Assembly: GCA_019057815.1 (NCBI GenBank)
Contig: JAHLWR010000001.1
Coordinates: 32,001 to 96,000, forward strand
DNA length: 64,000 bases
Direction: 5' to 3'
DNA from: Candidatus Heimdallarchaeota archaeon
GTDB lineage: Archaea; Asgardarchaeota; Heimdallarchaeia; Heimdallarchaeales; Heimdallarchaeaceae
The position numbers were made by a program, and so were the translations under genes. The notes under the pieces are model-generated. The model saw nothing but the letters and a program-made list of their open reading frames with translations. It did no database searches and was not told the origin of the DNA. Every line of letters starts with the position of its first letter. Positions within the stretch are counted from its first letter, which is position 1. This document shows positions 20,769 through 31,107 of this stretch, piece by piece.

Positions 20769-22115
20769 ATGAACTACTCCTACCTAAAGGTAGGCGTTTC
20801 TTGATTCATTGAAAAGACTTGTCCACTGATGATTGCCGAAGCAGTAAGAGTGAACAGGGGTCTGTTCTCCACAAGTAAAGAGGTATGTCCCTTACGCCTC
20901 TTCAAAATGTTTATTGAAGCGTTATAGTCACGGTCTAGCTCTAAGCCACAATAAGGACAAGAGTGTGTCCTATCATTTAATGTCTTGGGGACTATCTCTC
21001 CACATCTGGAACATTCTTGAGTAGTGCCTCTAGGAGGAACTTTAACTAGTTCTTTATCAGCGTTTACAGCTTTATAAGCTAAATAGTTGAAGAATATTCC
21101 CCACGAAGCGTCGAGAATGTTACGATGGAGTGTGCGTGACCGCTTGTGTTTCTTATTTCCGTTCTGTGTGAGTCCTTTAATATTCAAGTTTTCCACACAG
21201 ATAATATCATAATTATCTACATAAAAGTTTGAGACTTTATGTAAGAAGTCTTTACGCTGGTCAACAGCTTTAGTGTAGAGTTTAGCCAACTGATATTTGG
21301 CTTTTAACCAATTCTTTGAACCTTGCTTTTTACGACTAAGAGATTTGTGCTTATTTTTAAGTTTCTTTAATTGTCTTTCTATGTTTTTAGGATTCTCTAT
21401 CTCTCGTCCATCCGAATCCACTGCGTAAGAATTTATCCCTACATCTATCCCTACGCTTTTAGAGGTTTTAGGAAGAGATATAGGAGCGTTCTCTACTTGT
21501 ATATTAGCGAACCATCTACCTGTTTGAGAACGTTTGAGTATTATGCCCTTGACTTTGTTTGTACGTATACGATTGTTTAATCCTCTACAATTGATAGTAC
21601 CTATCTTAGAAAAGGTTAGTTTATTTTTGTTTTCATCTATCTTGAATCCACTCTGGTTATAGTTGATAGTCTTGTACCATCCTTTTCCTTTGAAACGTAA
21701 GTGACCGATCTTATGTCCATTCTTCTTTAATTGTGCTAGACTTTTGATATTTGTCCATAGAGTGTAATTGACCATCTGTAAAACTTTAGAATATACCCCT
21801 TTCAATTCAGGCATAGAACTGTTTTTTAGCCCCACGATAAAAGATTGAGTTTTGATTTGTGTGAGTTTTTCTCCCTTCTCTCACGCTTTTTTGCGCTCTT
21901 CTAATAGCTTATTATAGAGTTTTCTGCAAATATCCAACTGTTCAATGAGTGTGGCTTGTTGCTGTTTATTAGGGTACAGTTGCACTTTGTAGGTTAACAT
22001 CAGTTCATTTCCTTATTTCCTTAGTACTTTTTTCACTATAAAAAGACGAGTATATGCTAAAGTGATGTTTCTATCGCATTCATCCCCACCTAAAGTTAGG
22101 GGATTTCTGCTATGC
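20769..22115 (-). mobile_element. Non-autonomous IS200/IS605-family (IS1341-like) element, tnpB only
   Basis: Left-end hairpin (minus strand) AATCCCCTAACTTTAGGTGGGGATGAATGCG, preceded by TTGAG. Right-end hairpin CCTACCTTTAGGTAGGAGTAGTTCAT. No tnpA. Ends are accurate to within a few bp. Confidence 0.85.
20780..22000 (-). pseudogene. tnpB: TnpB RNA-guided nuclease with in-frame TGA at codon 40
   Basis: ATG 22000 reads MLTYKVQLYPN...ERKKA*EKGE and continues in frame into ORF 20780..21835. RuvC motifs GIDVG, VENL and DRDYNAS and the Zn ribbon CSRC/CPYC are intact. Confidence 0.9.
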
Positions 22116-22122
22116 TCAATAT

Positions 22123-22533
22123 TTAAAAGTCTTCAGCAGTAGCAGATTCTTCTTTTTTCTTCACTACTTCAGCTGCATCTGCTTCTTTTTGTGCTTCCTG
22201 AACTTTTTGCTCTCTTTTGTTTAACTCTTGTTCTTTATCTGCAATTTTTACTTCAAGTTCGCGTATTTTAAGTTCTTTCTCAGCAATTGAAGCTTCTATT
22301 TTCTTAACAGCAACTTCTAGCTTAAAGGCTTTATCTGGTCGCCCTTTTTCTTTTTCTTCTGCAGCTTTCATTAGTTTTTCTTCAATTGACTTGTAATCCT
22401 TGAAACTCTTCTTATGTTGAGATGCGACTTTTTTCCTAAGATCTTGGATGTCTTTAAGAGTGTCATAAATATCCATTTCCAAATCATATTGCTCTTCACG
22501 CAATTCATAATACTTCTTTCCTTCTTCACTCAT
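22123..22533 (-). CDS. Coiled-coil hypothetical protein
   Basis: E/K-rich heptad pattern, 136 aa. Confidence 0.7.
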   Translation of the reverse strand: MSEEGKKYYELREEQYDLEMDIYDTLKDIQDLRKKVASQHKKSFKDYKSIEEKLMKAAEEKEKGRPDKAFKLEVAVKKIEASIAEKELKIRELEVKIADKEQELNKREQKVQEAQKEADAAEVVKKKEESATAEDF

Positions 22534-22606: not shown

Positions 22607-23173
22607 TCAGAAAAGGAAAGTATCACTTAATTCGATAAAAGGAGTAAACAATAGATGTATTTTGTCTCTTAATAGATATAAAATTATAGAACCTATAATT
22701 CCAGCTATTGATCCCCCCAAAATATCCAAGAAATAGTGAGCTTTTATAATTATCCGTCCATAACCTACTAGAATAGCCCAAATAAGGATTATCCAGCCTA
22801 TCTTTGGGAAAAGAAGCATTATCATAGTAGCTGAACAAGCCATTCTACCCGCATGACCACTTGGAAAACTCCAAATATCTAGTTTACTCACATATTTACT
22901 CTGTACTTCTTTGGATGGTCTTTTCCTTCTAATGATTCGTTTAAGTATCTGAATGACCAAACCAACAACAGCTATAGCGGTTATTTGTAACAAATTTTCA
23001 AATCTAGGGAATATTATGTCAAAGATATAACATATTAAACTGAAAGCTAGCCAAGGTAAGAAATCTCCTGATTTTGCAAAAAAACCTGCAAATTTATGAT
23101 TCATGAGGTCTGTATCAACAATACGCTGAGTAAGAGTCTGATCCCATGTTCCTAACTTGCTCAACGTTGACAT
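22607..23173 (-). CDS. PAP2-family membrane phosphatase
   Basis: KxxxxRxRP, SFPSGH, GRxxxxxHYxxD motifs. Confidence 0.9.
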   Translation of the reverse strand: MSTLSKLGTWDQTLTQRIVDTDLMNHKFAGFFAKSGDFLPWLAFSLICYIFDIIFPRFENLLQITAIAVVGLVIQILKRIIRRKRPSKEVQSKYVSKLDIWSFPSGHAGRMACSATMIMLLFPKIGWIILIWAILVGYGRIIIKAHYFLDILGGSIAGIIGSIILYLLRDKIHLLFTPFIELSDTFLF

Positions 23174-23371
23174 TGTAAGTAGTAATAAGAATCAAACCCT
23201 AATGAATATAATGTTAGTTGAAATTTACTTAAAGAATAGAAAATTTAGAGAAAAAAGGATTTATGTTCTTTTCTTCACTTTTTCTAATAACAGAAAAGAA
23301 AAATTTAAGAAGTAAGGTAAACGAAAAAAGATTGTAGGAGCAATGAGGGAAACCTTGATGCACCAAAAAGT

Positions 23372-23492
23372 CGGGCCTTAGCTCAGCGGCAAGAGCGGGC
23401 GGCTGTAGAGTAAATCGCACTTGTGAATAGTGATCAAGGTGTCAGTCGCAAAAACCGTCAGGTCCCGCGTTCAAATCGCGGAGGCCCGACCA
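23372..23492 (+). tRNA. trnY: tRNA-Tyr(GTA) with 45-nt intron at 37/38 (23409-23453) and encoded CCA
   Basis: Acceptor CGGGCCT/AGGCCCG with A73 and CCA (C1:G72, A73 = archaeal/eukaryal Tyr identity). D arm GCTC/GAGC. Anticodon stem GGCGG/CCGTC around CT-GTA-G. T arm CCGCG-TTCAAAT-CGCGG. Confidence 0.95.
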
Positions 23493-23775
23493 AATATTTC
23501 TAATTTTCTTTTTACTTCCTAAAAAACTATGAAGATAACATAATTCTAATTTTGGTAAATGTTACTATTTTAATAGATTATAATTAAATTAATAATTAGA
23601 ATATAATTTCTGAGTGTAACATTTTGTTAAGAGGTAATAGGATACTGCTGAAGAATATTATCAAAACTATTTCAAAAGTAATCATTCACAATCTTATTGT
23701 CGCATTGTAATAAATCCAAAAAGCGCTAAATTCAAGAAAAAACACTCAAAACATCTAAGGAAGCCAAATCTCAAA

Positions 23776-24534
23776 TTATATTTTTCTACCCACAGCTGTA
23801 AAAATAGGAATAAAAATCATCCTTGTGTTTTTCTTTATCATTTCCTTTTCCGTTCTTATAATTTCAGTAAATTCCTTTTCAGATATTTGTGAAGTTTCTA
23901 ACACTCTCCGCCATTCTTCTTCTATATTTTCAGTTAAGTGTTTCTTACTCCAAGTCTGAGCCACTACAGATACTGAAGTTTCTAAGTTTGCTGACTGGAA
24001 TAAATCCAACAATTGTCTACCCATAAACGGATTTGCACCTTGCTTTTTAAGACTCTCAACATGATACTTACCTAAGCTTAGTTCAGGATTTTCTATCCAT
24101 CCGCCATAATCAGGTTCTGCTAAAGCGATAACATATCCTCCTTTTTTACAAACTCTTACCATTTCATGAAGAACATCACTGGGTTTTGGGAGCCATAAGA
24201 AGAAATAATGGGAGAACACTATATCATAAGAAGCAGGCTTAATTTTCATAGACTTCGCATTTTCTACTAAAAAATCTACATTTTCAACCATAATTTTGGC
24301 TTTTTCAATCATCAATGGATCAGAATCTATTGCAGTAATTTTTGCAGAACATTTTTTTCTAATTTCTTTGGTTACAACTCCAGTGCCACATCCTACTTCT
24401 AGTATTCTCTTTGCGTTTAGCAATCCTATCTGGCGATAGATGTTGTTTCTGAAACCTTTTGTCCATTGAGCTTGACGCTTGAACTGTCTATCAAAAACAT
24501 CATATTCATTGTCTTTAAGATCTTTACTACTCAT
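23776..24534 (-). CDS. Class I SAM-dependent methyltransferase
   Basis: ILEVGCGTG motif, 'EMVRVCKKGG...EPDY'. Lies 37 bp downstream of the radical SAM gene with a GGTGA RBS. Confidence 0.9.
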   Translation of the reverse strand: MSSKDLKDNEYDVFDRQFKRQAQWTKGFRNNIYRQIGLLNAKRILEVGCGTGVVTKEIRKKCSAKITAIDSDPLMIEKAKIMVENVDFLVENAKSMKIKPASYDIVFSHYFFLWLPKPSDVLHEMVRVCKKGGYVIALAEPDYGGWIENPELSLGKYHVESLKKQGANPFMGRQLLDLFQSANLETSVSVVAQTWSKKHLTENIEEEWRRVLETSQISEKEFTEIIRTEKEMIKKNTRMIFIPIFTAVGRKI

Positions 24535-24571
24535 TTAGTTCACCCAAAAAGAGAGGATGGTGTTTTAGTTT

Positions 24572-25876
24572 CTATGAAAAGGCGTTTTTACATACGTTTC
24601 CAGGGGTTATATAATTGAGAGGACAACCTCCTCCACACAACTCTCGTTCAGGACATTCAGTACATTCTTGAGGAAGATACTTCATGTTACGAAGATGTTT
24701 TGCTAGCTTATGGTTCCAGATTTTCTTCCACCTCGTTGTTAGAATGTTACCTAGGGGTTCGAAGTAACTCTGACATGGGATAACCATTCCATCTGGTTCA
24801 ATAGCCATTGCTATATGAGCAGCTGAACACTGTTTCATTCCCAAGTTCTTCTCTATTGGATTGAAATCACAATATCTTGTTGGAGAGTACCAGAGGAAAC
24901 CCATTTTAAGCTCTTCAGCCTTGTTCATCACAAGATTTAGAGTATCATCCAGTTGTTCGATAGAGAGAGATAAAGCTGGATTTTTCCCACCACCAGATTT
25001 TATTATGGCGTTTGCAGCAAATTTTTCTATTCCAAGTGAAGCTAAAAAGGAAATTGTTTCTTCAACTCCTTCAATATTATGTGGTGTTAAAGTTGTATTT
25101 GTCATAATATAGACAGGTGTTGGTATAACATTCTTTATCCCTTCAACGGTTTCCTTCCAAGCTCCTTCTACTCCCGATAATTTATCATGGGTTTTTTCAT
25201 CATAACTCTCTATTGTTACTTGAAAATGATCAATTCCTGCTGTTACTAGACTTTCAACTAGTTTTTTATCTTTCAGCTTTCTTCCATTAGTGATTATTCC
25301 AGTAACTATCCCTAAATCTTCAGCATGTTCTACTAGCTCTGTTAAATCATCTCGAAGTGTTGGTTCTCCTCCTGTAAAAGTCACATGAGGTATACCTATC
25401 TCCCATAATCTATCTAGAACTCTTTTCCACTCTTCTGTACTTAACTCTTTGATTTCTCTATTAGTTTCAACATAGCATTTTGTGCACTTGTTATTACATC
25501 TGTAAGTTAAAGCTAAATCTACTCGAAGTGGAGCTGAAAAAGGTGCTTCTTGTAAAGGTGAAATATCTTGCGAGAGATCTTGAACTGGGTCTATATCTGG
25601 TTCAGCCATTAACTCTTGTATTGATGTTCTTAGGTCATCCAAATCGTCAATAAGTTGCTGTTCTGTAACTTTGTATTTCTTCTTCAATTCTCTAATTATT
25701 TCATCGTCACCTTTTCCTTCTATTATTCTAGAGACGATTTCCGTTGCTGTCTTATTAAGATAGAAGATTCTTGTAGCATTAATTATAAGAATACCTTCAC
25801 CTTTTTTCTCTTTTCTGAGATGCATTCTACCAAAAGTTTCTGTATCTCGAAAATGATAAATTTTTGTTGACTTCAT
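24572..25876 (-). CDS. PqqD/RRE - radical SAM - SPASM peptide maturase
   Basis: True start ATG 25876 (TAATG overlap with the upstream stop). RRE-like 'YLNKTATEIVSRIIEGKGDDEIIRELKKKYKV...DDL'. CNNKCTKC, TGGEP. SPASM CSAA...PDG..IPC...GNI...CTEC.....CGGGCP. Confidence 0.92.
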   Translation of the reverse strand: MKSTKIYHFRDTETFGRMHLRKEKKGEGILIINATRIFYLNKTATEIVSRIIEGKGDDEIIRELKKKYKVTEQQLIDDLDDLRTSIQELMAEPDIDPVQDLSQDISPLQEAPFSAPLRVDLALTYRCNNKCTKCYVETNREIKELSTEEWKRVLDRLWEIGIPHVTFTGGEPTLRDDLTELVEHAEDLGIVTGIITNGRKLKDKKLVESLVTAGIDHFQVTIESYDEKTHDKLSGVEGAWKETVEGIKNVIPTPVYIMTNTTLTPHNIEGVEETISFLASLGIEKFAANAIIKSGGGKNPALSLSIEQLDDTLNLVMNKAEELKMGFLWYSPTRYCDFNPIEKNLGMKQCSAAHIAMAIEPDGMVIPCQSYFEPLGNILTTRWKKIWNHKLAKHLRNMKYLPQECTECPERELCGGGCPLNYITPGNVCKNAFS

Positions 25877-27651
25877 TATCTTCCACCTCCGGCACACGCG
25901 CATGCACAAGCGCAAGCACAAGCACATCCTCCTCCACCGCCACCTGACCGTCCTCCAGATGTTCTTGTTGGCGCTGGCCTTGTTACTCTCTGAATTGATC
26001 GATGTAGTGACCTAGGTTTTCGAATTAATCCCGAACTAAAACTTGACACAGGGGCTATTGGTCTGATATTTCCATGGGGTTTAATTCTTCTAAATAACCT
26101 TGTGCTTGTTGGTATATAGCTAGTATTTCCTGAATAGTAGTAATAATTTACAATGTACCAGTTAGGATAGTAATAACTGCCATAATACCGATCGAAATTT
26201 TCTTCATAACCTTCGTCTACCATTACCCATAAGAACGCATCTTTCAGTTCTGGTTTAGACTTACTTAAATCTTGCCAAGATTTTTCTACAATATCTTCAT
26301 AATAATTTTTTGTTCTTCTAAGCGAGAATCCTTTCATTTTTTTGGATACATTTTTAATATGTGCCAGCAATGCTGCTTCCAGTTCCTTTTGATGTACAGG
26401 TTCGGTTGCTATACTTCCTGACATTTCTCCTTTACTAATTTTCACCGTTTCTTTATTTCTTCGTTCAATCCCTTTGATTATTTGCGTTTGACTAATGGTC
26501 ATTGTTTTTACTTTCTTGTTAACTTGTAACCTAAATGGAGATTTTTGTTTGATTGAAATATAACCCTTTTCCATCATTTCAAATAGAATAAGAGTTGCTA
26601 CTTGAGCCAACGGTCTCTCCATTACAATAGCTGCTTCTGAAGGAGTAAGGTTTTCTCTTACTCCACCTCCAAGGGAGTTAATTGATGGAGGAAGATATTT
26701 TCTAGCTTTTCTTCTTTTATTCCATAAAGAGAAAATGACTATAAAAATTATTATTGCACCAAGTGCAATTACGTACCTTTTTTCATATAATGTTAGTTTC
26801 CAAAATACTGAATGTACTTTTACATATGTATCAGGAAAAGCTATTCCAACAAAATATCCTTCATCAGGATATCCATCTATCAGGCTAAACTCTATATATG
26901 ACCCTAATGTAGTGAAATCATATACATTGAAATCACCAGAAGTTGTAAGTCTTTCTTCAACAACAGATAAGTCAATATATTCCCCAGGAAGAAAGATTCG
27001 TACAGTTCGATTTGTTGTTCCGCTCGTAAAAGAAGAGCTAAACCATGTTTGATCAAATAATAGAGATGCATATCCTTCATTCTCATCTGGAAAAATCATT
27101 GCAGGATTATGACAATATACTACTAAAACAGCTGTATGTTCAGGTAAAATAGCGTGCTCTTCTAGATATATTTCAGGACCGATTTCAATATATGTACTCT
27201 TTTGAATGTTAAATATTTCAATGCCATCTATCCATGCACGAACTGAATTTATCTTATAGTTATGATTGGGAATACCAATATCCACTATGTCGATTGGATC
27301 CGCTCCAACTAGATTCTTGAAGACAATTGTGTAGTAAATATCTATGGAACCATCTTTTAAAACAGTAATATTAGTAGTCATTGTAGGGACTTCAAAATTG
27401 TATGATTGAACAGTTGATTCATTGCTTTCAGGAATTGTAATTTCAGCAACAGCTGAACTACAAAGTAAAATTCCTATAACTAAAAGAACAAAACTTAGTG
27501 AAACTACTTTTGGAAACCTTATTTTAGACACCTTTCTTACATTTATCTTACTGCTTTTTAAATTTTCTAGCAACGTCCATCTTCTGTACTTCACTTGATT
27601 ATCTATTATATCAATAGCGAAAACAAGATTTGTTCTAATGTTAGAGTACAT
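25876..27651 (-). CDS. DUF2207-like secreted/membrane protein with C-terminal G6-(CA)6-GGGR tail
   Basis: Signal peptide, beta ectodomain ('ITVLKDGSIDIYYTIVF'), one TM, 'LTPSEAAIV...ATLILFEMMEKGYI', Gly-rich tail ending CACACACACACAGGGR. The true start is probably downstream of 27651. Confidence 0.8.
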   Translation of the reverse strand: MYSNIRTNLVFAIDIIDNQVKYRRWTLLENLKSSKINVRKVSKIRFPKVVSLSFVLLVIGILLCSSAVAEITIPESNESTVQSYNFEVPTMTTNITVLKDGSIDIYYTIVFKNLVGADPIDIVDIGIPNHNYKINSVRAWIDGIEIFNIQKSTYIEIGPEIYLEEHAILPEHTAVLVVYCHNPAMIFPDENEGYASLLFDQTWFSSSFTSGTTNRTVRIFLPGEYIDLSVVEERLTTSGDFNVYDFTTLGSYIEFSLIDGYPDEGYFVGIAFPDTYVKVHSVFWKLTLYEKRYVIALGAIIIFIVIFSLWNKRRKARKYLPPSINSLGGGVRENLTPSEAAIVMERPLAQVATLILFEMMEKGYISIKQKSPFRLQVNKKVKTMTISQTQIIKGIERRNKETVKISKGEMSGSIATEPVHQKELEAALLAHIKNVSKKMKGFSLRRTKNYYEDIVEKSWQDLSKSKPELKDAFLWVMVDEGYEENFDRYYGSYYYPNWYIVNYYYYSGNTSYIPTSTRLFRRIKPHGNIRPIAPVSSFSSGLIRKPRSLHRSIQRVTRPAPTRTSGGRSGGGGGGCACACACACACAGGGR

Positions 27652-27696: not shown

Positions 27697-28617
27697 CTAA
27701 ATTTTTGTTTTAATTGTCCTTTCTCCTTTAATCATCTTACTTTTTCTTTTTTGCTTTGGTTTAGGTTTAGGTTTTATACCGAAAACTATCCGTTCTTTTG
27801 ATTTATCTATTGTAATAGTTACTTTTAGACCGCTTTTTTTTGTTCTTTTATCCCATTTGTATTTCAGAAGGTCTAAATATTCATCCTCAGTCATTTTGTT
27901 GAAATCAGAAATCTGTTCTAACGCTTTTAAATCTTTAAACCTATCAAAAATGATTTCATATTCATTATCCTTTTTCATTATTACTCCCTTCCAACCAGTT
28001 ACATTTGATCCTATTACTGCTATATATGCTGCTATTTTGAAGGAACCTTCTAGAAAACCAAATAACTGATCTACTTTCTCATTGAACTCATCAGAATCAT
28101 CAAAAAACGCCTTAGCTTTCTGTTTTCCTTGTTCTTTCTTGATTTTAGTATAAATTTTATTAATTGTTTTTATCTTCTCATAATTTTGAAGATGTTCTTT
28201 CATGTTTATATCTAAACGAGGAATTTCAGTTCTTTTTCTTTGTGTTTCTTCATAAATTGGGATAGTCATTGTATTTATACTTTCAATAACAAGCCTTTGA
28301 GCTTCTCCTTTTGGTTGAACCAATGTCCATGTAATATCACTTGTTTCCGTTGGAGAAATACGCGTTGATGAATGCATGCGTATTTTTCCGTTTCGAAGTT
28401 TTTTAACAAATCTGGGATAAACTCTAAATCTAGTAGTGCTTTGTTTAAAATTAGAAATCAACATACTCAAGTATGCTAGAATAACGCCCATTATCCCCTC
28501 ACCTCCAACTATTTCCTCTAGAGCCCAAGTTTTGTTATTATTAATTACTGATTCTAAATTAATTAGAAGATAATTAATCATTTCTTGTTCTTCTTCATTT
28601 ACATTTACATATTGCAT
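27697..28617 (-). CDS. Hypothetical protein with basic C-terminus
   Basis: 306-aa ORF with no motif recognised. Confidence 0.65.
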   Translation of the reverse strand: MQYVNVNEEEQEMINYLLINLESVINNNKTWALEEIVGGEGIMGVILAYLSMLISNFKQSTTRFRVYPRFVKKLRNGKIRMHSSTRISPTETSDITWTLVQPKGEAQRLVIESINTMTIPIYEETQRKRTEIPRLDINMKEHLQNYEKIKTINKIYTKIKKEQGKQKAKAFFDDSDEFNEKVDQLFGFLEGSFKIAAYIAVIGSNVTGWKGVIMKKDNEYEIIFDRFKDLKALEQISDFNKMTEDEYLDLLKYKWDKRTKKSGLKVTITIDKSKERIVFGIKPKPKPKQKRKSKMIKGERTIKTKI

Positions 28618-28715: not shown

Positions 28716-29432
28716 TCAATAGAAAAGATGTTCTTTTTCCTTCTTCTCTTTTCTTATCCTTATTCTTCTTCGTCTCTTATTGTTCCCTTTATCCTCTTTT
28801 TTAGGTTTTCTAGGAGGAACGAATGTTAATTTCTTATTGAACTGATTTGATATCTCTTCCAGTTTGCTATAAATCAAAAACTTCATTTTAGTACTTCTTT
28901 CCATCTCGTAAATCATTGATAGTTTCCCTAGCGTTTCTTCATCAGCATAAAAAGGTAAAATACTCAAAGCCATTTGTCTTGTAAATAAAGCTGAATCATT
29001 GGTTAAAACTGAATACAGAAGTGAAATTATCTTATTCTTATCACACTTTTTTCGTTCATGCAAATGCTTTAAAGCTATAGAACGCAAAATGTCAATTTTA
29101 TCTTTCTCTACAGCAAGCTCTAGAATTTCTTCAACTTTCGAAGAATCATATGTTGACATAGCTTCAATAATCGCTAATCTAACTGAATGTTCCTTTTCAA
29201 AAAGGTATAATTCAGCTAATTTGTCTGCAATCTCTTCGCCTTTATTTTTATTCAATGCAAGAATTGCTTGTATCCTGATTTTTTCATAAAGGTCATTTTT
29301 CGCTAAGTTTAGAAGAAAATTTTTAACTTCTTCTTTTTCAGAATAATTACCAAAATCTAGAATAATTGTTAGTTTTTCTCTATCAGTTGATTTCTTGAAT
29401 TTCTCGAATTTAGTACCCAAATCACTATTCAT
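28716..29432 (-). CDS. HEAT-repeat protein with basic tail
   Basis: Repeats 'IRIQAILAL', 'VRLAIIEAM', 'LRSIALKHL', 'TRQMALSIL'. Confidence 0.8.
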   Translation of the reverse strand: MNSDLGTKFEKFKKSTDREKLTIILDFGNYSEKEEVKNFLLNLAKNDLYEKIRIQAILALNKNKGEEIADKLAELYLFEKEHSVRLAIIEAMSTYDSSKVEEILELAVEKDKIDILRSIALKHLHERKKCDKNKIISLLYSVLTNDSALFTRQMALSILPFYADEETLGKLSMIYEMERSTKMKFLIYSKLEEISNQFNKKLTFVPPRKPKKEDKGNNKRRRRIRIRKEKKEKEHLFY

Positions 29433-30192: not shown

Positions 30193-31107
30193 ATGCTAGA
30201 GATTCGATTTCATGGCAGAGGAGGTACGGGGACTGTATTAGCTTCAAGAGCTTATGCCAAGGCTGTTTTTTATGCAGGAAGACATGCTATAACCTTTCCA
30301 TCATTTGGTCCAGAGAGAAGAGGAGCTCCTGTTCTTGCTTTCGCTAGAATTGACAACAAGAAAATTTACAAGAGAACACAGATTTACGAACCAGATGTTG
30401 TTGTATGTCTTGATGATGCAATTATGGAACTAATTGATATAGCTCAAGGATTAAAAATAGGAGGGAAGGGTGTGCTAAATTCTCCAAATAAACCAGAAGA
30501 AATTAAACTTTCCAAATCTATTGAGGTAGGTGTTGTTGACGCTACAAAAATAGCTAAAGAAGTTTTAGAAAGCACTATCACTAATAGTGCAACTCTAGGT
30601 GCATTAATAAGAACAATTGATAGTATATCCTTCAAACATTTAGAAAAAGGGATTTTATCTGTTTTTGGTGAAAGACTTGGGGAGAAACTTGCAAAGAAGA
30701 ATGTCGAGGCTGCTAGAATAGCATTTGAGGAGACTATCTTTGGAACAACACTAAGTGGGAGAAATTATTCTCAGGAAAAACGTTGGTTACCAACAGTTGA
30801 TGAACTACCGATTGGAACAATTTTATCTAAATCAGAAGTTAATTCAGGACAATTAATTGGTCCGGGATCTGCTATTACTCGCAAAACTGGGACATGGAAT
30901 CACAAAAAAGCAAAAATCAATCAAGAAAAGTGTACTAAATGCTTAATATGTGTTTTTCATTGTCCTGAAGGAACTATTCACCGAGAAGGAGATATTATCA
31001 AAATAGATCATACCTATTGCAAAGCTTGTGGTATATGTGTTGAAGAATGTCCAGAAAATGCAATTTCTATGGTTGAAATAAAAGATTTCTCAGAGATTAC
31101 ATCTTAA
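30193..31107 (+). CDS. 2-oxoacid:ferredoxin oxidoreductase gamma subunit fused to delta (ferredoxin) subunit
   Basis: N-terminal EIRFHGRGG and FGPERRGAPV (gamma). C-terminal KTGTW...CTKCLICVFHCP...CKACGICVEECP (delta). Confidence 0.9.
   Translation: MLEIRFHGRGGTGTVLASRAYAKAVFYAGRHAITFPSFGPERRGAPVLAFARIDNKKIYKRTQIYEPDVVVCLDDAIMELIDIAQGLKIGGKGVLNSPNKPEEIKLSKSIEVGVVDATKIAKEVLESTITNSATLGALIRTIDSISFKHLEKGILSVFGERLGEKLAKKNVEAARIAFEETIFGTTLSGRNYSQEKRWLPTVDELPIGTILSKSEVNSGQLIGPGSAITRKTGTWNHKKAKINQEKCTKCLICVFHCPEGTIHREGDIIKIDHTYCKACGICVEECPENAISMVEIKDFSEITS

Follow-up and report, generated by a model that had tools for sequence, protein, structure and literature searches.

The DNA analysed here (the window) is a stretch of 64,000 nucleotides from Candidatus Heimdallarchaeota archaeon (contig JAHLWR010000001.1, positions 32,001 to 96,000), and it encodes three adjacent genes that probably form a protein-maturation cassette. 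Its substrate would be no small precursor peptide but the C-terminal, cytoplasm-facing tail of a membrane protein of full length (P0001), in which a radical S-adenosylmethionine (SAM) enzyme (P0003) equipped with a recognition element (RRE) for peptides made on the ribosome and modified after translation (RiPPs) and with a SPASM domain would install thioether cross-links, to be followed by methylation. In its widest form the proposal, which we hold to stand slightly better than an even chance, is that a ladder of thioether (or other Cys-derived) cross-links on the cytoplasmic tail would make up a permanent structural or cofactor element, built by a four- to five-gene cassette in many anaerobic bacterial and archaeal phyla and, elsewhere among Asgard archaea, by a parallel (CHSA)n system. 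The genes counted in that cassette are those for a zinc-ribbon membrane protein, the tail protein, the radical SAM enzyme, a Cys-less radical SAM paralogue and a methyltransferase. All cassette features lie on the minus strand of the window, and the main ones are the following.

25876..27651, minus strand: tail protein gene P0001, 591 amino acids (aa); open reading frame (ORF) and structural model, with a ribophorin-I/DUF2207-type ectodomain, a single transmembrane (TM) helix, a helical domain in the cytoplasm and a disordered linker rich in Gly, and ending in (Cys-Ala)6-GGGR
25879..25944, minus strand: core tail G6-(Cys-Ala)6-GGGR, residues 570-591, with (CA)6 at 25891-25926 and GGGR at 25879-25890
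25969..25986, minus strand: pre-tail motif VTRPAP, residues 556-561, T557 and P559 being nearly invariant in the family alignment
24572..25876, minus strand: RRE-radical SAM-SPASM enzyme gene P0003, 434 aa, assigned by domain searches
23776..24534, minus strand: class I SAM-dependent methyltransferase gene P0002, 252 aa (Methyltransf_11, E 2e-21), the third gene of the cassette

A tail kept at the protein level

Translation of the ORF 27651..25876 gives P0001 the C-terminus RTSGGRSGGGGGG-CACACACACACA-GGGR. The Cys-Ala units are written in mixed codons (TGT GCT TGT GCT TGC GCT TGT GCA TGC GCG TGT GCC), exactly as listed in the initial annotation of this DNA, which had reasoned from them that the repeat is maintained as protein rather than as a DNA repeat. 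A wider sample bears this out. A scan for the back-translated (CA)3-GGGR-stop motif, with one genome per species, matched at least 120 species, from which 80 loci were fetched as 8-kb pieces. The matches proved to be real C-termini in 80/80, and every ORF of at least 200 residues was homologous to P0001. Over the last 14 codons these loci present 80 different DNA strings in 80 species, and yet only three peptides:

Variant A: last 14 residues ...ACAGCACACAGGGR, 57 loci
Variant B: last 14 residues ...AGCACACACAGGGR, 12 loci
Variant C (archaeal, the type of the window): last 14 residues CACACACACAGGGR, 10 loci

In an alignment of 49 members of the P0001 family, with a mean identity of about 30%, residues C578-R591 are invariant and the tail supplies 14 of the 20 invariant columns. 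Its Ala positions never vary, and Ala and Gly are as invariant as Cys. Taken together, the collapse of 80 DNA strings into three peptides and the invariance of the tail columns point to very strong protein-level selection that extends to Ala and Gly.

Ahead of the repeat, 54 of the 75 tails with at least 60 residues contain a T[NRSH]PxP motif, most bacteria having T-N-P-x-P. The corresponding VTRPAP of P0001 is thus a candidate recognition sequence for the RRE. The genome of the window has exactly one (CA)n-GGGR tail, and P0001 itself matches no Pfam or NCBIfam model.

Linkage and co-occurrence of tail and enzyme

The stop codon of the tail gene (25878-25876) overlaps the start codon of P0003 (25876-25874) in the TAATG at 25874-25878, already pointed out in the initial annotation, and the overlap implies that P0003 is translationally coupled to the tail gene. 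This pairing extends far beyond the window. Homologues of P0001 in protein databases come from Heimdallarchaeota and from other metagenomic sources, and every full-length one, down to 28% identity, ends in (CA)4-6-GGGR. The species matched by the tail scan include Anaerolineae, Planctomycetota, Acidobacteriota, Aminicenantes and Hydrogenedentes, together with Methanomassiliicoccales, other Thermoplasmatota, Heimdall- and Hodarchaeota, and the cultured Ornatilinea apprima. In four of four independent encoding contigs, again down to 28% identity, the RRE-radical SAM gene directly follows the tail gene and a methyltransferase belongs to the cassette. When cassette genes were tallied in the 80 loci with hidden Markov models made from orthologues, an orthologous radical SAM gene was found within the 8-kb piece in 67, in an order that differs among the tail classes:

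Class A: tail, radical SAM, second radical SAM-like gene, methyltransferase; radical SAM gene in 50/57 loci
Class B: radical SAM, paralogue, tail, methyltransferase; radical SAM gene in 6/6 loci with upstream DNA
Class C: tail, radical SAM, methyltransferase; radical SAM gene directly downstream in 10/10 loci

Most of the pieces in which the enzyme is missing are short of flanking DNA, as is the case for three of the class A loci. In the exception genomes tested (four of class A and one of class B) an orthologue is encoded elsewhere in 5/5 cases, with E values of 1e-88 to 1e-136. Hence the expectation that tail homologues would mostly have a radical SAM gene as neighbour is borne out, and the five exception genomes tested carry the enzyme as well.

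The same association is seen at the level of whole genomes. We sampled 151 genomes of the phylum of the window; since related genomes are not independent, the resulting counts are descriptive and do not constitute a statistical test. The exact tail is present in 27 of the 151, and all 27 encode the radical SAM enzyme at E <= 1e-120. In families where the tail is patchy, the same genomes hold both tail and enzyme (3/7 in family f5 and 3/25 in family f13). When the protein body is scored instead of the tail, 48 genomes have both body and enzyme, 10 the enzyme only, one the body only and 92 neither, the enzyme-only genomes belonging almost entirely to the Asgard family f16. It is thus highly improbable that this gene order has been kept by descent or hitch-hiking alone and carries no functional meaning. 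Kin do share gene order, and many of the loci are from Anaerolineae, but the pairing is found across bacteria and archaea at 28-30% identity and in three gene orders, genome-level co-occurrence persists where linkage has been lost, and the pairing tracks patchy presence and absence inside families.

The RRE-radical SAM-SPASM enzyme

By its domains, P0003 has all the parts of an RRE-dependent radical SAM/SPASM maturase. The three elements that the initial annotation had read in the gene after the tail gene are all present, with the PqqD and SPASM matches above their Pfam cut-offs:

25631..25777, minus strand: PqqD-type RRE, residues 34-82 (PF05402, 31.2 bits, gathering cut-off 23.4)
25475..25498, minus strand: CxxxCxxC motif, residues 127-134 (C127, C131, C134), followed by the invariant Y135 (PF04055, E 4e-27)
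24623..24871, minus strand: SPASM region with C336, C350, C368, C405, C408, C414 and C418 (PF13186, E 5e-10, 39.9 bits, cut-off 21.5)

Among 45 orthologues of P0003, the RRE residues R21, L40 and N41 are invariant, as are C127, C131 and C134, and CxxxCxxC is present in 55 of 56 orthologues. The seven conserved Cys of the SPASM region would be enough for two auxiliary 4Fe-4S clusters.

The closest solved relative of P0003 is the thioether synthase SkfB (6EFN; 95 bits, E 4e-26). We compared P0003, SkfB and PqqE at the active-site positions defined by Precord et al., the comparison being limited to those adjacent to landmarks (1, 5 and 6 of the six positions):

P0003: Tyr after CxxxCxxC; C-Q-S loop after the auxiliary-cluster Cys
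SkfB: Tyr after CxxxCxxC; C-Q-L loop after the auxiliary-cluster Cys
PqqE: Ser after CxxxCxxC; C-H-A loop after the auxiliary-cluster Cys

The Tyr and the C-Q-x loop shared by P0003 and SkfB are a weak pointer towards thioether chemistry. P0003 scores far below every NCBIfam family cut-off, among them those for SkfB (TIGR04403, 111 against 300 bits), StsB (NF045574, 95 against 625), PqqE (TIGR02109, 152 against 381), AlbA (NF012164, 74 against 850) and the CrpC family (rSAM_vs_C_rich, TIGR04463, 31.6 against 525). A complex prediction for the radical SAM enzyme (45-row alignment) with three 4Fe-4S clusters, SAM and residues 510-591 of P0001 (49-row alignment) gave no answer (ipSAE 0.03 and 0.02, mark 0.32) and counts neither way on binding. 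We also considered whether similarity among the radical SAM enzymes follows tail class. This was rejected, for their percent identities follow taxonomy and the enzyme sequences thus add no further evidence on this point.

Three kinds of tail

Comparison with two sets of more distant relatives, on which the separation of tail from body rests, associates the enzyme with the Cys residues of the tail:

P0001 family: Gly-rich segment, then (CA)n-GGGR; radical SAM enzyme of the P0003 clade
Sister family in Asgard family f10: (CHSA)n...GGFR; a different radical SAM clade, 34% identical to P0003 over its full length, RRE included, and encoded divergently alongside
Canonical DUF2207 proteins above the Pfam cut-off: Gly/Ala only, with no Cys in the last 60 residues; no P0003-type radical SAM enzyme found in those genomes

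At one locus, the (CHSA)n system consists of a 736-aa membrane protein (L141:1456-3666, minus strand) and an RRE-radical SAM-SPASM gene (L141:4521-5963, plus strand). The cytoplasmic domain of the former is homologous to residues 330-514 of P0001 (BLASTP, E 1e-8), and a match to the protein body was obtained in 19 of the 26 genomes sampled from family f10. Canonical DUF2207 proteins were identified in 11 genomes from six families of the phylum, none of which has a P0003-type radical SAM match, and 8/8 of the ORFs inspected (L175-L182) have a Tyr/Trp-rich segment resembling the one in P0001, after which they end in long runs of Gly and Ala free of Cys. The comparison thus indicates that the P0003-type enzyme goes with Cys in the tail and that the clade of the enzyme goes with the kind of Cys repeat. 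Since the canonical DUF2207 proteins seem to display the design of P0001 minus its Cys, it also suggests that the Cys-repeat tails may derive from an older Gly-rich tail.

Architecture of the tail protein

A hydropathy scan and an AlphaFold2 model agree with the topology put forward in the initial annotation, that is, a hydrophobic N-terminus, an ectodomain, a single TM helix and a cytoplasmic domain:

27454..27522, minus strand: N-terminal hydrophobic segment, residues ~44-66 (signal peptide or signal anchor), with a K/R-rich stretch ahead of it (hydropathy; helix 46-65 in the model)
26827..27408, minus strand: extracytoplasmic beta-sandwich, residues 82-275 (predicted local distance difference test score, pLDDT, >90), with an Ost1/ribophorin-I and M1-aminopeptidase N-domain type of fold
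26701..26787, minus strand: TM helix, residues 289-317, followed by NKRRKARK (hydropathy, 291-313, and model)
25981..26652, minus strand: cytoplasmic helical domain, residues 334-557 (domain model pLDDT 89.6), common to the (CHSA)n-tailed sister family

The full-length model has an overall pLDDT of 82.9, and the tail, at <50, is disordered. The annotated N-terminus, which places some 40 residues ahead of the first hydrophobic segment, may be over-extended relative to homologues. By the positive-inside rule, the NKRRKARK that follows the TM helix predicts that everything beyond it, tail included, is cytoplasmic, and the tail would thus be within reach of an enzyme dependent on Fe-S clusters and SAM.

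This architecture also bears on the notion that P0001 is a giant precursor, the tail, once modified, being severed in the Gly-rich linker to set free a small cross-linked peptide, in the manner of a true RiPP. The layout is precursor-like, with a recognition motif, a linker and a C-terminal core in that order. However, the protein body is well conserved and has three confidently folded parts, the tail is predicted to be cytoplasmic, DUF2207 kin keep a Gly tail without any such system, and the cassette has no conserved protease or exporter. Peptide release, which the initial annotation had raised as one possible outcome, therefore finds no support and we regard it as improbable.

The ectodomain adopts a fold of the ribophorin I/Ost1 lumenal beta-sandwich type. 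Structural alignment with VIA-align gave Z 15.1 against Ost1/ribophorin I 6c26_1 (root-mean-square deviation 3.0, 179 aligned residues), 14.5 against 6s7o_E and about 12 against the N-domain of LTA4H/M1 aminopeptidases; the Foldseek search points to the same fold. Pfam searches gave no ribophorin match, and the likeness is thus one of fold only, from which we claim no membership in ribophorin I. For the cytoplasmic domain (residues 334-540, 26032-26652), GOLPH3/Vps74 was ranked first by both Foldseek and VIA-align, with Z 6.4 for the phosphatidylinositol 4-phosphate-binding Golgi protein GOLPH3 (3kn1) and 4.9 for Vps74 (2zih). These values are weak, the Foldseek search of the domain gave nothing significant, and GOLPH3/Vps74 was rejected as a name for its fold.

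Relatedness to DUF2207, also proposed in the initial annotation, probably holds for architecture and fold and fails as regards Pfam matches of P0001 itself. The order of parts in DUF2207 proteins (PF09972 and PF20990) appears to be that of P0001: signal, beta-sandwich ectodomain, TM helix, cytoplasmic domain, Tyr/Trp-rich segment and low-complexity Gly tail. ESM-Atlas neighbours of P0001 include clusters labelled DUF2207 and DUF2207_C, at low TM-scores (0.31-0.37), and among the 49 family members DUF2207_C matched five (best E 9.9e-5) and DUF2207 one (E 0.049). P0001 has no match to PF09972 or PF20990 at E <= 1, let alone at gathering score, and a PF09972 search of the genome of the window found nothing. 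The (CHSA)n sister protein reaches 23.8 bits on PF09972, against a cut-off of 24.4. Hence, "DUF2207-like" is a fair description of remote kinship and not of membership. What separates the canonical members from P0001 is their Cys-free Gly/Ala tail and the lack of a P0003-type radical SAM match in their genomes.

Methyltransferase, partner genes and neighbourhood

P0002 lies 37 nt beyond P0003. It falls under every NCBIfam cut-off, and for the DVU_1556 family methyltransferase model (NF045667, cut-off 155 bits) it scores 53.5 bits and its Ornatilinea orthologue 62.4. Orthologues of P0002 belong to the cassette in 4/4 of the encoding-contig loci and in 16 of the 22 class A loci whose downstream sequence extends for 3.5 kb or more. 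The intergenic spaces of the cassette hold no Cys-rich small ORF, in agreement with the earlier remark that no separate small precursor is visible.

Two further genes accompany the cassette in other genomes. The first occupies the position immediately upstream of the tail gene in 44 of the 80 loci, archaeal ones included, and encodes a small protein (120-136 aa) that has two TM helices and, at its C-terminus, a zinc ribbon. It does not appear in the window, and a 40%-identical copy is found in the same genome on another contig (C15:344-742, locus L173), with a luciferase-like gene on one side and a cupin gene on the other. This pair of genes encloses the whole cassette in a related Heimdall contig (L005), which argues that the block of tail, radical SAM and methyltransferase genes has been relocated in the genome of the window. 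As a side observation, a TnpB/IS605 OrfB-type gene (20780-21835, minus strand; OrfB_IS605 and Cas12f1-like TNB domains) is situated about 2 kb past the methyltransferase end of the cassette.

The second is a radical SAM-like gene that follows the true radical SAM gene in Anaerolineae and Planctomycetota (L066:2121-3215, minus strand, and 31 other bacterial loci) and that does not occur in the window. Its products have a weak PqqD match, CxxxCxxC in 0/32 cases and between 0 and 6 Cys, and are thus taken to be an inactive paralogue, perhaps a chaperone or scaffold. The idea that this second gene is paired with a Gly-interrupted tail, at one radical SAM enzyme per Cys block, was rejected, because interrupted tails are seen with a single radical SAM gene in view in Hodarchaeota, Heimdall B3, Sabulitectum and Aminicenantes loci.

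The remaining neighbours of the cassette in the window are listed below.

27697-28617, minus strand: 306-aa protein directly upstream of the tail gene, with no Pfam match; synteny is conserved with a related Heimdall contig, where a 305-aa protein close to the cassette (L008:728-1645) shares 54% identity with it
23174-23775: 602 bp between the PAP2 gene and the methyltransferase gene, with no convincing ORF
22607-23173, minus strand: PAP2 phosphatase
22123-22533, minus strand: 136-aa coiled-coil protein
28716-29432, minus strand: HEAT-repeat protein
30193-31107, plus strand: fused pyruvate:ferredoxin oxidoreductase gamma/delta-type protein with two 4Fe-4S motifs

None of the PAP2, coiled-coil, HEAT-repeat and oxidoreductase genes is conserved with the cassette in other loci. 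PADLOC returned only generic matches to viperin (radical SAM core) and to a methyltransferase, indicating that the cassette is not a known defence system.

Proposed mechanism and competing explanations

The coupling of tail and enzyme, the co-variation of tail type with radical SAM clade, and the pairing of Cys-free DUF2207 tails with genomes in which the enzyme was not found make the tail most likely the substrate of P0003. This was the central suggestion of the initial annotation; linkage, co-occurrence and co-variation support it, and from them we infer that the tail is modified. By analogy with characterized enzymes, thioether cross-links would be the likeliest chemistry. The precedents of CrpC and StsB, together with the SkfB-like landmarks of P0003, lead us to propose an order of RRE docking, thioether formation and methylation. 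The RRE would grip a leader-like segment just before the linker, for which VTRPAP is the candidate, and the Cys-Ala repeat would be threaded into the radical SAM active site. There, 5'-deoxyadenosyl radicals would abstract hydrogen from Ala or Gly carbons, and neighbouring Cys sulfurs would form several thioethers, presumably of the sactionine or ranthionine type, with the two SPASM clusters handling electrons. The methyltransferase would then add a tailoring methylation. This would leave a rigid, cross-linked and redox-inert knob at the cytoplasmic end of an envelope protein, with a putative structural or cofactor role in the cell.

Several points weigh against this proposal. The chemistry has been demonstrated for no member of the family, and P0003 is far under the cut-offs of all characterized thioether-synthase families. 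The methyltransferase is not found in every locus. In family f16, the tail gene shows no linkage to the radical SAM gene or to a short methyltransferase gene, and the exact tail was found in only 7/19 genomes. Tail-less close homologues of P0001 were not found in the 151-genome sample, so that phyletic coupling alone cannot separate the tail from the body as partner of the enzyme. Lastly, C-x-C repeats are classic metal or Fe-S ligands, and the tail could act unmodified.

With regard to family f16, its genomes are 72-91% complete, and contig ends often truncate the tail gene or divide it over separate contigs (L137-L140, L142, L157). The missing tails may thus reflect assembly loss, a reading that is not proven. 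One f16 genome (G065) was also seen to have a partial second copy of the tail gene just downstream, a likely cause of assembly breaks.

The last of the points above leads to the main competing explanation, in which an unmodified tail binds metal or Fe-S clusters, while the targets of the radical SAM enzyme and of the methyltransferase would be, for instance, a cofactor, a lipid, the zinc-ribbon partner or some other region of the membrane protein. Metallothionein-like and cluster-binding sites typically have C-x-C spacing, a further metal ligand, His, is present in the CHSA variant, and the lack of linkage in f16 also speaks for an enzyme with a different target. Moreover, CrpA, an archaeal protein that receives thioethers, may bind metals according to its authors, and its gene cluster is upregulated on pyrite (PMC13692751). 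On the other hand, a conserved element for peptide recognition is part of the enzyme, the genes next to it include no further conserved candidate for a substrate, and tail type co-varies with radical SAM clade. Furthermore, Ala and Gly are as invariant as Cys, whereas the spacers between ligands need not be, and one would not expect Ala to be invariant if it merely spaced the ligands of a metal-binding C-x-C site. We thus consider a purely metal-binding tail unlikely, if clearly the strongest of the competitors, and favour the tail as substrate of the coupled enzyme.

Comparison with known systems

The literature searched contains no published description of a Cys-Ala-tail/RRE-radical SAM system, and no Pfam, NCBIfam or PADLOC model names the cassette, which concurs with the earlier impression that the pairing had not been characterized. 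RRE-bearing radical SAM/SPASM enzymes have been described almost exclusively as producing small peptide natural products, and enzymatic thioethers on whole proteins are documented in two or three cases (QhpC and, in 2026, CrpA). Here, well over 100 species, from Chloroflexota to Asgard archaea, couple such an enzyme to one short motif that hardly varies and is borne by a large membrane protein, and the 22 residues concerned offer a clean, testable substrate for new enzymology. Setting the Gly-only, (CA)n and (CHSA)n tails side by side, which is new, as is the ribophorin-I-like fold of the ectodomain, amounts to a natural experiment on the purpose of the tail and gives a first functional handle on a large class of DUF2207-like envelope proteins with unexplained Gly-rich tails.

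Each known system shares part of this design. SkfB resembles P0003 in its N-terminal RRE, in the Tyr directly after CxxxCxxC and in the C-Q-x loop after the auxiliary-cluster Cys; it forms one Cys-Met thioether in a 55-aa precursor, whereas P0003 has a full 7-Cys SPASM region. StsB links C2, C4 and C6 to G11, G13 and G15 in a CxCxC...GxGxG core, producing a hairpin of three sactionines (PMC10288494). Both StsB/StsA, from Streptomyces sparsogenes, and BlaB/BlaA place alternating Cys near Gly acceptors, much as G6-(CA)6-GGG in P0001 places alternating Cys between Gly runs. StsA, however, is a short precursor served by an RRE (StsC) that is a separate protein, and P0001-type tails have six or seven Cys in which x is always Ala.

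As to whole proteins, the radical SAM enzyme QhpD is reported to form several intra-protein cross-links in QhpC, the gamma subunit of quinohemoprotein amine dehydrogenase (PMC7876137). Like P0001 as envisaged here, QhpC is cross-linked as a protein, and it stays part of a functional complex; unlike P0001, it is a small soluble subunit that is later exported, and the likeness is functional, with no sequence relation claimed.

Among the closest precedents, along with QhpD/QhpC and StsB/StsA, is CrpC, an RRE-radical SAM-SPASM enzyme that puts thioethers on the 28.8-kDa protein CrpA at C-A-G/C-A-V motifs (PMC13692751, 2026). In Methanococcus voltae, as in the cassette, a gene with RRE, radical SAM and 7-Cys SPASM regions lies beside that of a Cys-rich protein rather than of a short peptide. 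The modified motifs of CrpA (CAGM, CAVD, PCAGD) have Cys followed by Ala, as in P0001, and both systems are archaeal and anaerobic. Radical SAM cross-linking of a whole protein is thus a published principle, and its application to the tail of a whole membrane protein is probably undescribed. CrpA is soluble and consists of ten 17-residue repeats, whereas P0001 is an integral membrane protein with a 22-residue tail, and the cassette of P0003, which is not a TIGR04463 member, adds a methyltransferase to the pair.

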